Virus record (IMG/VR): IMGVR_UViG_2698536450_000019
Length of the DNA: 6,508 nt
Direction: 5' to 3' (one strand)
Source: a virus
Lineage: Duplodnaviria; Heunggongvirae; Uroviricota; Caudoviricetes
The position numbers were made by a program. Shown in pieces: positions 1-3,000 of the stretch; positions within the stretch are counted from its first letter, which is position 1; every line of letters begins with the position of its first letter.

Positions 1-3000
1 TCAATAAATCCCATCATTGCGATCAACCTCATCCTTAACCATTGATGCGAGCAGTTCTTCCAGTTTCTGCGCTGACAGCTTTACCTGGTGATCTTCAGCA
101 TCTTCCCGGGCTATTGTGGTTCGCGCAGTGGCTGATTTTGCTGACATCACCACAGGGGGCAGACGGACCATTGAACCATGGCCTCCGGAACAAATAAGGG
201 CAAAAATAACAACCACTATCGAAAGCTCACAAACTAACCGCAGCACGTTCCTGCATACGACGTGTCTGCGGCATAATCCCAATGATTACTCCCTGACAGG
301 GTTTGCAGGCCACTCAATATCAGGTGCAGTTGATGTATCAACACGATTCAACAATACCCGATATTTATTCCATGCCTCCAGCAACGATCTTTCTTCCTCC
401 GTTGCGATTTCCAGATCTACAGCATCCTGCAGTGGCGCAATATACTCACTGAATTCCTGGATGTAGAACTGTGTGGTGACGGTCTTCCAGCCATTCGGCT
501 CCTGCTGTATCGAAGCATACCAGGCTATTTCAATATCGCTATGCTGCGGCAGCATTTAACCCCTTGTAATTCATCGCCATAATTGATTTAATTCACAAAT
601 AAAACTATAACATGGTGAAATCAATGAAAAAAAACACAGATGATGGGGCTAAAATTTACACACCACTTACCCTAAAGCTTTATGACTGGTGGGTTTTGGG
701 AGTATCAAATCGGCTTGCATGGGGATGTCCTACAAAGGAACACCTTCTTCCACACTTTCTGGAACATGTAGGTAACAACCATCTGGATATTGGTGTTGGA
801 ACTGGGTTTTACCTTACTCACGTACCTGAGAGTAGTCTGATATCTTTAATGGATTTGAACGAAGCTAGCCTGAACGCGGCATCTACAAGGGCTGGGGAAT
901 CAAAAATTAAACATAAAATTAGCCATGATGTTTTTGAACCTTATCCCGCGGCGTTACATGGTCAATTTGATTCCATTTCCATGTTTTACCTTCTTCACTG
1001 CCTGCCTGGAAATATATCTACAAAAAGCTGTGTAATACGCAATGCGGCGCAGGCCTTAACTGACGATGGAACTCTATACGGAGCCACAATTCTTGGCGAT
1101 GGAGTTGTGCACAATAGCTTCGGTCAAAAACTGATGCGCATTTACAATCAGAAAGGCATCTTTTCAAACACAAAAGATTCCGAAGAAGGCTTAACACATA
1201 TACTCTCAGAGCATTTCGAGAATGTTAAAACCAAGGTTCAAGGTACTGTAGTAATGTTTTCCGCTTCAGGGAAAAAATAGCATCCAACCGCAGCACGTTC
1301 TTGCTTAAGACGTGCTGCGGCATAATCCCAATGATTACTCCCTGACAGGGTTCGTAGGCCACTCAATATCAGGTGCAGTTGATGTATCAACACGGTTCAG
1401 CAACACCCGATACTTTTTCCAGGCTTCCAGCAATGAGGTTTCTTCCTCCGTTGCAATTTCCAGATCTGCAGCATCCTGAAGCGGCGCAATATGCTCACTG
1501 GCTACCTGCATCAGGTTGTTTTTTGTTTCTTCCGCCTCCCGGATCCGGAACAGTTTTTCTGCTTCCGTATCCTTCACCCAGGCTGTGCCGTTCCACTTCT
1601 GAAACTCCCCTTCCGGCGATAACCAGGTAACATTTTCCGGTAACGGACCGAGTTCAGAAATAAATAACGCGTCGCCGGAAGCCACGTCATAAACCGTTTT
1701 ACCCCGATGGTCTTCAAAGAGATGCCACGATGACTCATCACTGTTGAAAACAGCCACGAAGCCTGCCGGAATATCTAACGGTGCAATATCGGTACTGTTT
1801 GCAGGCAGACCTGTATGAGGCGGAATATATGCGTCACCTTCACCAATAAATTCATTAGTTCCGGCCAGCAGATTATAAATTTTTATGGTCCGTGGTTGTT
1901 CACTCATTCTGAATGCCATTATGCAAGCCTCACAATATAGTTAAATGCGATGTTTTTGACGGTGTTTTCCGCGTTACCAGCAGCGTTAACGGTGATGGTG
2001 TGTCCATGTGAACCAATCGCAACGGAGTGCGCATGAGCACCAATTGGAACAGAGTGCGCATGGTTACCTGTAGTGCTTGTGGCACCAGACCAGGTTCTGG
2101 AAGCGTTAAAGTTTACAGGAACACCATAAGTAAATTGAGAGCCCGTAAATCCATGGGCTGGCGCAGAGCCACCCAGTGTAAATGCTCCACTTGCTGTATA
2201 GAAATTACCGCTATCACTTCTGAAGTAACCGAGAGTACCGGTAATTTCCATAGTGCCTCGGCTGTGGTTATGGTCACCAGTGGCATTTGAAGACTTAGTA
2301 CCATAATCAAACGACGACGTGGTTTTCGTCCCCAAATCCGTACTGGATGCACTGGCGCTGTGGGTGTGCGATTTAATGCCGTCCTGTTCCTGAGATAATA
2401 CGGCCCGACCACTGGCAGGTTTGCCCTTAATCGTCCAGCCACGCATATCAGGGATCACGCCTGACGGATAAGCAGCTGCAAGTTTCGGGTAAGCAGATTT
2501 GTCAAAAGTCTGCCCCTGCATCAGGGCATAACCAGACGGAACGGTATCTGATGGCCACGGGATTGGTGCGCCAGGCGGATAAAACTGCTCTGATGGCGTA
2601 TAGAGTGAATAAACTGTACCGTCCGTTAACCCTTCCGGCTTATTAGCAGAATATGCTGGTGACGTATGAATCGTCACGCTGGCATTACTGGTATAATCCC
2701 ATTGAATATTTACACCAGTCGCATAATTTCCGATTGCAACGTAAATATCGTAAGTATCACCAGATGTATTGACCCAGGCAAAATTTGTAAACCCTGTCGA
2801 TGTGCGCTGCCATAAAGCACCAGTAATCCCCTTCGGATTACCATTACCTGCACGCAAAACAAGTTCAGATATACCTGCCTGTTGAGGTGAACCGACGTTA
2901 AATCCAGCGCCACCAATCAACGTAATTGAAACAACAGAACTCGCCTGTGGCATGGTTACCGTTGCTAATTTGAACCAACCAGCACCACCGCTGAATGACA

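Follow-up and report, generated by a model that had tools for sequence, protein, structure and literature searches.

The methyltransferase gene and its cassette

The window analyzed here is a 6,508-nucleotide stretch of a tailed-virus genome (Caudoviricetes; IMG/VR record IMGVR_UViG_2698536450_000019), and our subject is a gene it carries for a class I S-adenosylmethionine (SAM)-dependent methyltransferase of the YbcY family. The open reading frame (ORF) spans 612–1280 on the plus strand, opposite tfa, stf, lom, and J, and encodes 222 aa. Its product scores above the Pfam gathering thresholds for Methyltransf_12, Methyltransf_23, Methyltransf_25, and Methyltransf_11, all four of the profiles named in a preliminary description of the sequence. 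In the 222-aa numbering, the protein contains HLDIGVGTG (res. 57–65), D81 at the end of β2, FDSISMFYLLHCLP (res. 119–132), and LTDDGTLYG (res. 149–157). Together with the predicted fold and the Foldseek matches given below, these profiles and motifs confirm the enzyme class assigned in the preliminary description. The gene is also, as had been noted there, convergent with the late genes and AT-rich: its GC content is 0.40–0.42 across 600–1200 and 0.412 for the ORF alone (GC3 0.356), against 0.44–0.62 in the tail genes.

The start codon was examined in an alignment of eight copies from different contexts, namely prophages, phages ev243 and Kati, Nissle, O157, a K-12-like strain, and plasmid-like and insertion sequence (IS)-flanked sites in Salmonella. 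ATG612, the start given by both RefSeq and the preliminary description (222 aa), is not kept in this alignment, reading ACG in Nissle 1917 and AAG in the Salmonella copies. ATG624 is conserved, as is the Shine-Dalgarno-like element GGTGA (614–618) five bases upstream of it. Homologs are ~218 aa long, and the PHROG 2132 profile begins at residue 5 of the 222-aa form. Because ATG612 is unconserved, ATG624 is conserved, and the homologs and the PHROG profile begin there, the true start is most likely ATG624, which would give a product of 218 aa (624–1280, plus strand); the ORF first described stands, with its start moved downstream. The N-terminal secretion signal considered in the preliminary description is not predicted: the search returned neither a signal peptide nor a transmembrane segment (Kyte-Doolittle 19-residue average of at most 0.95, polar N-terminus). 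The protein has a predicted pI of 7.2, and no nucleic-acid-binding domain is present among its profile matches.

Across genomic contexts the constant part of the locus corresponds to window positions ~553–1320 and comprises an upstream block, the ORF, and a hairpin. The putative promoter/leader block (553–623, plus strand), delimited by conservation, a promoter scan, and the Shimada 2014 prediction, covers the ~70 bp upstream of the ORF that are nearly invariant in the eight copies, even in the 87%-identical Salmonella copy on a plasmid-like contig; homology stops left of ~553. Two candidate sigma-70 promoters lie within it. One, found in a consensus scan, consists of TTAACC (556–561) and CATAAT (578–583) separated by a 16-bp spacer. 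The other consists of TTGATT (583–588) and TATAAC (606–611) with a 17-bp spacer, and is the ybcY promoter predicted by Shimada 2014 within a Genomic SELEX peak of the RpoD holoenzyme (PMC3946193). In the same study, in vitro binding of the RpoD holoenzyme maps to the ybcY/tfaX spacer of K-12, which also carries an H-NS flag (PMC3946193). An Rfam search upstream of the methyltransferase found no riboswitch or leader RNA.

At the opposite end, a GC-rich hairpin (1288–1320, stem arms CCGCAGCACGT...ACGTGCTGCGG) lies between the convergent methyltransferase and tfa genes. Its RNA fold has a predicted energy of -25.1 kcal/mol (z = -4.9 vs shuffles), it is present in all E. coli contexts, and homology ends just past it. 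The O157 and phage Kati copies have a T-run after the hairpin; in the window no T-run stands behind it on the plus strand, and a simple terminator scan left it uncalled. From its folding and conservation, the hairpin is likely to terminate transcription in both directions, and with it the constant cassette ends on the right.

The cassette is flanked by two direct repeats of 227 bp (236–462 and 1286–1511), ~89–90% identical and spaced 1049–1050 bp apart, which were located by a repeat search. The left copy contains a degenerate version of the hairpin and the 3′ end of a truncated tfa (tfaX in K-12), and the right copy contains the hairpin itself and the 3′ end of the intact tail-fiber assembly gene tfa, which occupies 1335–1919 on the minus strand (Pfam Caudo_TAP, E 2e-44; RefSeq annotation). 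The preliminary description had called the gene a tail-fiber-adjacent moron. This adjacency reflects recombination through the conserved 3′ end of tfa, which borders the cassette on both sides as a direct repeat and serves as portable homology, rather than functional coupling; elsewhere the cassette adjoins ompT or lies beyond an invertase. Many tfa loci have no cassette, several flanking contexts occur, and GC is 0.41 against 0.44–0.62 in the neighboring genes. The cassette is a textbook moron because it combines a candidate promoter, a gene, a predicted terminator, atypical composition, and presence/absence polymorphism, and the moron architecture proposed at the outset is borne out by an upstream block that is conserved and its own and by the predicted terminator hairpin.

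Left of the cassette, divergent from the methyltransferase, a tfaX-like ORF of 89 aa (286–555, minus strand) joins a novel 30-aa N-terminus to a Tfa C-terminal domain (Pfam Caudo_TAP, res. 31–86). RefSeq labels it a tfa pseudogene; a match to PHROG 2341 (E 4e-61) spans its full length, and it may be a conserved short Tfa-like protein. It co-travels with the methyltransferase cassette in many genomes.

Orthologs, prevalence, and mobility

Loci annotated 'class I SAM-dependent methyltransferase' (WP_000240999.1) match the window DNA at 100% identity, and PHROG 2132 (function unassigned) is matched at E 4e-157. Over 309–1511, the window is 97.3% identical in DNA sequence to a K-12-like locus that has the same flanking tfa fragments. 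In that genome, the ortholog is a frameshifted methyltransferase pseudogene between tfaD' and tfaX'-appY-ompT-envY in the cryptic prophage DLP12, which in the K-12 annotation is the gene named ybcY (b0562). On these alignments, the window carries an intact ortholog of ybcY from E. coli K-12, already named and with a substrate class proposed only by analogy. The undescribed accessory function that the preliminary description had proposed therefore belongs to a gene that has a name in the literature, occurs in thousands of RefSeq genomes, and is catalogued as PHROG 2132. Published work places ybcY next to tfaX (PMC3946193) and 272 bp from ompT in strains CFT073, UTI89, 536, J96, ABU83972, and E2348/69 (PMC6854850). 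The loss of K-12 ybcY appears recent, because the K-12-like allele (strain 9A, locus L103, 5304–5970) differs from the window ORF by only five substitutions besides the 2-bp deletion that destroys ATG624, and its other 214 codons are still open. In the literature on homologs, STM1638 is named only as a neighbor of rydC and c0651 appears in one microarray table only; nothing was found under WP_000240999 or on lambdoid moron methyltransferases, and nothing relevant on phages ev243 and 2G7b.

Of 5426 complete E. coli genomes, 3838 (~70–71%) carry the cassette methyltransferase, some in as many as 4 copies. It also occurs in 15 phage genomes deposited in databases, among them ev243, 2G7b, Kati, and the PhiR series. 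E. coli ATCC 11775 has the arrangement of the window at the end of a lambdoid prophage whose insertion site is in ompW, beside trp and yciEFG. The order around the methyltransferase (MT) is ompT-MT-tfa'-int'-argU in Nissle 1917; ompT, an alpha/beta hydrolase, ISEc8, tfa', MT, and yciGFE-katN-like genes in O157:H7; and tail genes, MT, tfa', hydrolase, ompT, and int in phage ev243. In phage Kati the cassette lies beyond an invertase. Its company in prophages is lysogenic-conversion cargo (ompT, lom, bor, the alpha/beta hydrolase, and yciGFE-katN), in agreement with the earlier placement of the gene in a slot for such cargo. In O157:H7 NE1127 (L102), a yciG/yciF/yciE-like trio and a katN-like manganese catalase follow the cassette at 6448–8661; this set, phage cargo situated between the cassette and tfa, is a stress operon.

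Two pairwise comparisons gave the same dN/dS of 0.17, one with the Nissle copy (dS 0.035) and the other with the 87%-identical Salmonella copy (dN 0.070, dS 0.406), and on the strength of this ratio the YbcY protein is under purifying selection. A GC content of ~40% is kept in E. coli, in the plasmid-like and IS-flanked Salmonella copies, and in Citrobacter, Enterobacter, and Aeromonas, and resident copies are nearer to the composition of their hosts (56% GC in Erwinia, 47% in Salmonella STM1638). The sites themselves are diverse. Homologs lie on a plasmid-like contig with ccdAB and kfrA; in an IS cluster; beside sodC, a phage tail-L fragment, dinI, and sopA in Citrobacter; between a PMT_2 gene and rydC/cybB on the Salmonella chromosome (STM1638); and at singleton sites in Erwinia, Aeromonas, Enterobacter, and Yersinia. 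The atypical composition and the movement of copies between phages, plasmids, IS-flanked sites, and chromosomes support the horizontal acquisition suggested in the preliminary description.

Plasmids carry the family as well: 761 entries in PLSDB contain a homolog, 603 of them from Klebsiella. The IncFIB/IncHI1B virulence plasmid of hypervirulent K. pneumoniae (hvKp; L104, NZ_CP144338.1, 8995–9648) encodes a 65%-identical homolog, transcribed divergently from its neighbors rmpA-rmpD-rmpC and located next to peg-344 and iroBCDN. This homolog is BAH65943.1 of pK2044 (WP_011251259.1), which has been listed among marker genes associated with liver abscess and hvKp, by linkage only (PMC5126061, PMC9372168). 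On another Klebsiella plasmid (NZ_CP073792.1, L105), the homolog sits within an apparent zinc-limitation island (3876–18525) that contains a Fur/Zur-like repressor, a COG0523 GTPase, zigA, an ABC transporter, ldtB and dsbB paralogs, DoxX, and an alpha-hydroxy-acid oxidase; this setting is possibly relevant to the conserved His/Cys residues.

The family reaches well beyond enterobacteria. In an exhaustive HMMER scan, 1326 representative clusters scored E <= 1e-3, and 197 scored E <= 1e-30. When a single genome of each GTDB species was scanned, at least 600 matches came up; among the matches listed are Enterobacterales, the Pseudomonas syringae group, Xanthomonadales, Burkholderiales, Vibrionaceae, Acidobacteria, Nostoc, Actinobacteria, and Firmicutes. 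Ascomycete fungi have homologs ~50% identical to a query from a lichen fungus (P0161), whose bacterial and fungal matches range from 42 to 63% identity. When the fungal query was used to look for a named enzyme, all fungal relatives were labeled 'hypothetical' or 'Methyltransferase type 12'.

No neighbor accompanies these genes. All-against-all clustering of the ORFs at 80 loci of different genera yielded no conserved neighbor; the commonest clusters occur at no more than 13 of the 80 loci, lie >2 kb away, and belong to generic superfamilies (short-chain dehydrogenases/reductases, LysR, ABC ATPases). Likewise, the homolog loci of Salmonella, Erwinia, Aeromonas, Enterobacter, and Yersinia share no conserved neighbor. 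Two candidate partners were rejected. The carboxylesterase that adjoins the Erwinia homolog and the alpha/beta hydrolase next to the cassette in ev243 and O157 share no homology, and a DoxX gene adjoins the homolog in Erwinia only, the DoxX on one Klebsiella plasmid being unrelated to it by BLAST. Two fusions were seen among homologs, one to a cytochrome P450 and one to RCC1 repeats, and they are suggestive only as hints of function. The YbcY family is a widespread orphan singleton of bacteria and ascomycetes, found on chromosomes, plasmids, and phages.

Fold, active site, and substrate class

The AlphaFold2 (AF2) model of the protein is a single domain (mean pLDDT 90.3, pTM 0.86) built on a canonical seven-stranded class I Rossmann core, with two N-terminal lid helices (res. 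18–52) and a 40-residue insertion between β5 and β6. The SAM-binding core is predicted to consist of the GxGxG loop (res. 61–65), with D81 placed for the ribose and D106 for the adenine. We mapped conservation with 97 sequences that are 33–57% identical to the window protein. D81, H129, G157, and D189 are invariant in this set; Y16, Y24, D25, W37, C39, H57, S121, C130, K138, and N186 are found in at least 90% of the sequences; and the motif I glycines G61, G63, and G65 are found in at least 98%. Most of the family-invariant polar residues are borne by the N-terminal lid and the β5–β6 insertion. The invariant His129 is in the loop after β4, where PfPMT has His132.

Two solved enzymes offer a guide to this active site. 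The best solved-structure match by phmmer is juvenile hormone acid O-methyltransferase (JHAMT; E 1e-3, ~21% identity), in an alignment that pairs FYLLHC with FYTLHW and places His129, D106, and D81 on JHAMT His115, Asp92, and Asp68. In JHAMT, His114/115 is the essential proton acceptor and carboxyl anchor, Asp92 contacts the adenine, and Asp68 contacts the ribose (PMC8526772). The family residues Y16, Y24, and D25 fall in the region of Gln14, which pairs with the catalytic His114 in B. mori JHAMT1, a region that is outside the phmmer alignment. The family profile finds its best PDB match in CysG (E 9e-7), with His129-Cys130 on CysG His122-His123, part of a Ca2+-binding His-His-Asp motif that holds the substrate carboxylate (PMC11408123).

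Profile libraries place the protein less precisely. NCBIfam has no specific model for the family, whose members give weak generic matches to BioC, UbiE, CpaM, and NodS; its ArsM, TPMT, TehB, PmtA, and RquA models either do not match or fall far below cut-off. The family HMMs of known detoxifying methyltransferases (TehB, TPMT, ArsM, Tam) are not matched, PADLOC returns no significant match (best mad2, E 0.009, 12.9 bits), and the BFVD viral fold library yields generic unnamed methyltransferases only.

We favor, with modest confidence, a soluble cytoplasmic class I SAM-dependent methyltransferase that acts on a small molecule and is carried as a self-contained moron of a lambdoid prophage, expressed in the lysogen. 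Transcription in the lysogen would start from the cassette's own candidate sigma-70 promoter, independently of the phage late operon, and H-NS would probably damp ybcY expression. The substrate would be a small, polar, widely available metabolite or xenobiotic rather than DNA, RNA, or a virion component, and the polar residues of the lid and the insertion would form a specific pocket for it. The invariant His129 and residues of the N-terminal lid would position or deprotonate the acceptor atom, and a metal held by His129, Cys130, and Asp189 may assist. Formation of a carboxylate methyl ester would come first among the candidate reactions, with S- or N-methylation possible. The host would likely benefit through chemical detoxification or modification, that is, through lysogenic conversion. 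We rank carboxyl O-methylation first with low confidence, because the sequence neighbors whose chemistry is assigned mix carboxyl O-methyltransferases (JHAMT, CysG/BelI, BioC) with other chemistries (UbiG, UbiE, NodS, XrdM); overall, our evidence points to a small molecule more than to RNA, protein, or a surface polymer.

Several points weigh against this assignment. The substrate class is drawn from analogy of fold and alignment only, and no single structural match stands out: the matches lie on a flat plateau, on which the tRNA-, cap-, and protein-modifying enzymes CmoA, Trm9, METTL6, and cap guanine-N7 methyltransferases are also found. The equivalence of Asp189 and CysG Asp191 is not alignable, the C-terminal half having no solved relative by sequence: a profile of this half gave chance matches only (FliD) when compared with the PDB. 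For expression, the SELEX data report binding in vitro to the locus of the K-12 pseudogene, and the 5′ ends predicted from the two candidate promoters disagree. A ybcY mutant left Hha toxicity unchanged (PMC2408971), so the K-12 knockout has no phenotype in the single reported assay, but the allele involved was already a pseudogene.

Other readings account for parts of these data. A standalone modification enzyme with a macromolecular target common to all hosts (a nucleotide of tRNA or rRNA, or a protein, whether of the ribosome, of translation, or of another kind) is the main alternative, though a less probable one, in keeping with a singleton that works in any host and needs no neighbor. It is set back by the neutral pI of 7.2 and the absence of an RNA- or protein-recognition domain, by best sequence and profile matches that are small-molecule enzymes (JHAMT, UbiG, CysG, NodS, XrdM, BioC), and by RNA and protein methyltransferase models that match only 1–4 of the 97 members; a patchy distribution on mobile genetic elements would also be unusual for a housekeeping modification enzyme. 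Defense and exclusion genes are common in the tail-fiber-distal cargo region of lambdoid prophages, and a location in this region, together with the very high prevalence and up to 4 copies per genome, would suit a gene that serves the phage through superinfection exclusion, anti-phage defense, or counter-defense, by methylating a nucleotide-derived signal or an incoming phage component. We regard this as unlikely, given no significant PADLOC match, no partner gene, and a family whose members mostly occupy chromosomal or plasmid, non-phage contexts in at least 600 species and in fungi. Orphan DNA methyltransferases are commonly carried by phages, and protection of phage or host DNA from restriction might be imagined. 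The protein has no Pfam or NCBIfam DNA methyltransferase match, 218 aa leave it without a target-recognition domain, its post-β4 motif is LLHCLPG rather than (D/N/S)PP(Y/F) or PC plus ENV, and its structural neighbors are small-molecule enzymes; because of the motifs and the size, a DNA methyltransferase is effectively excluded.

The top Foldseek match, PmtA (8ys9, E 3e-11), raises the idea of a phospholipid N-methyltransferase that would convert phosphatidylethanolamine (PE) to methylated PE or phosphatidylcholine and remodel the membrane of the lysogen. In its favor are a Trp-rich N-terminal helix (YDWWVL...AW), the abundance of PE in E. coli membranes, and a weak NCBIfam match to the Legionella PmtA. 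This match (NF045882) reaches 15.7 bits against a cut-off of 390, however, and the resemblance to 8ys9 is at the level of the fold only, which makes a PmtA-like activity very improbable. It is just as hard to regard the gene as a functionless passenger that hitch-hikes with prophages between recombinogenic tfa repeats. The K-12 pseudogene, flanking repeats that promote spread, and the lack of any reported phenotype would all be expected of one, but not a dN/dS of 0.17 among E. coli copies and against the Salmonella copy, an ORF intact in thousands of genomes, a promoter and leader conserved across unrelated contexts, or relatives 40–57% identical to the window protein in several bacterial phyla, along with fungal homologs.

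A bolder version of the small-molecule reading, which we consider doubtful, holds that the YbcY family is an unrecognized metal-assisted (His-Cys-Asp) small-molecule methyltransferase that neutralizes or modifies a compound of the host or its microbiota and recurs as fitness or virulence cargo in lambdoid prophages of E. coli and on the rmpADC/iro virulence plasmid of hvKp. K-12, a natural null, would allow this function to be tested directly. The gene is among the commonest cargo genes of E. coli prophages and is kept intact by selection, and close relatives are also found on the hvKp virulence plasmid and on Salmonella, Enterobacter, Yersinia, and Pseudomonas chromosomes; discovery of the substrate would annotate thousands of genes and reveal a chemical service of lambdoid prophages to their hosts. 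The favored small-molecule enzyme is, in itself, an already-catalogued methyltransferase and not a new kind of system, with nothing surprising to a specialist. It is mildly interesting for three reasons: it is very common, it is clearly under purifying selection, and it turns up repeatedly with virulence cargo, the hvKp plasmid included.

Neighboring features and relation to known systems

At the left edge of the window, a C-terminal fragment of a DUF4376/tail-fiber-like protein (1–282, minus strand; PHROG 7703 and 1141) marks the end of the prophage at its attachment site, since a truncated ompW comes next in ATCC 11775. The side tail-fiber gene stf (1919–4588, minus strand, from ORF calling) is convergent with the methyltransferase and encodes 889 aa, compared with 1035 aa in ATCC 11775. 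Its long Ala/Ser/Thr-rich repetitive center (3000–4400) has a GC content of ~0.61 and a strong AT skew, and identity to ATCC 11775 falls there from 99% to 92–96% with gaps, which indicates, on sequence comparison, repeat-length polymorphism or mosaicism; weak, sub-threshold Rfam isrG matches also fall in this segment. Further along, lom (4740–5337, minus strand), which encodes an Ail/Lom outer-membrane protein, is split into two ORFs. Judged by a 2-bp deletion at gene positions 158–159 relative to the intact lom of ATCC 11775, the lom of this prophage is a frameshifted pseudogene.

Two smaller annotations concern the repeats around the cassette. Rfam RF02111 ('IS009'), a candidate small RNA (sRNA) from K-12 intergenic screens, matches the minus strand at 1378–1576 (225 bits, above gathering) and at 329–532 (112 bits, just below). 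Because both matches fall inside the conserved 3′ coding part of tfa or the tfaX-like ORF, this 'sRNA' family looks like a fragment of the tail-fiber-assembly gene and not an RNA gene. A 51-aa ORF (1238–1393, minus strand) runs across the hairpin and the 3′ end of the methyltransferase gene and was most likely called in error; a shorter nested ORF (1225–1362, minus strand) is a RefSeq 'hypothetical protein' (WP_001309429.1), and its K-12-like counterpart is annotated 'nucleocapsid protein'.

Among known genes, the closest counterparts are K-12 ybcY, CFT073 c0651, WP_000240999.1, WP_000742375.1, and PHROG 2132, which are the same gene at 97–100% identity. With K-12 ybcY the window copy shares the local order tfa' <- ybcY -> tfaX', with ompT/appY nearby. 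The K-12 gene has lost its start to a 2-bp deletion and resides in DLP12 at argU, whereas the window copy is intact, belongs to a lambdoid prophage integrated at ompW, and has an intact stf-tfa pair upstream. The methyltransferase of pK2044/pLVPK belongs to the same family, with ~65% identity over the full length, and is likewise a singleton on a mobile element among virulence cargo. It differs in being plasmid-borne rather than phage-borne, and its association with virulence is by linkage only. The lambdoid morons and conversion genes lom, bor, ompT, and sodC share with ybcY a position in the cargo region beyond the tail-fiber genes, a reduced GC content, and a presence that varies from one related phage to another; the candidate promoter and predicted terminator of ybcY would be a further likeness. 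In contrast to these genes, ybcY has a product that is predicted to be a cytoplasmic enzyme and not an envelope protein.

At the level of the enzyme, YbcY resembles JHAMT (PDB 7EBS/7EC0) in the post-β4 motif FYxLH(W/C), in the aligned His/Asp/Asp residues, and in a small-molecule pocket made of the N-terminal lid and the post-β5 insertion, which for YbcY is predicted. Gln14 and the hydrophobic terpenoid pocket of JHAMT are not recognizable in YbcY, the C-terminal halves are dissimilar, and YbcY is not a member of the JHAMT family. CysG and BelI (PDB 9FCD, 9FCE) are Ca2+-dependent carboxyl O-methyltransferases of cystargolide and belactosin biosynthesis. Where their second ligand is a His, YbcY has Cys130, and whereas their genes are part of biosynthetic clusters, those of the YbcY family are singletons.

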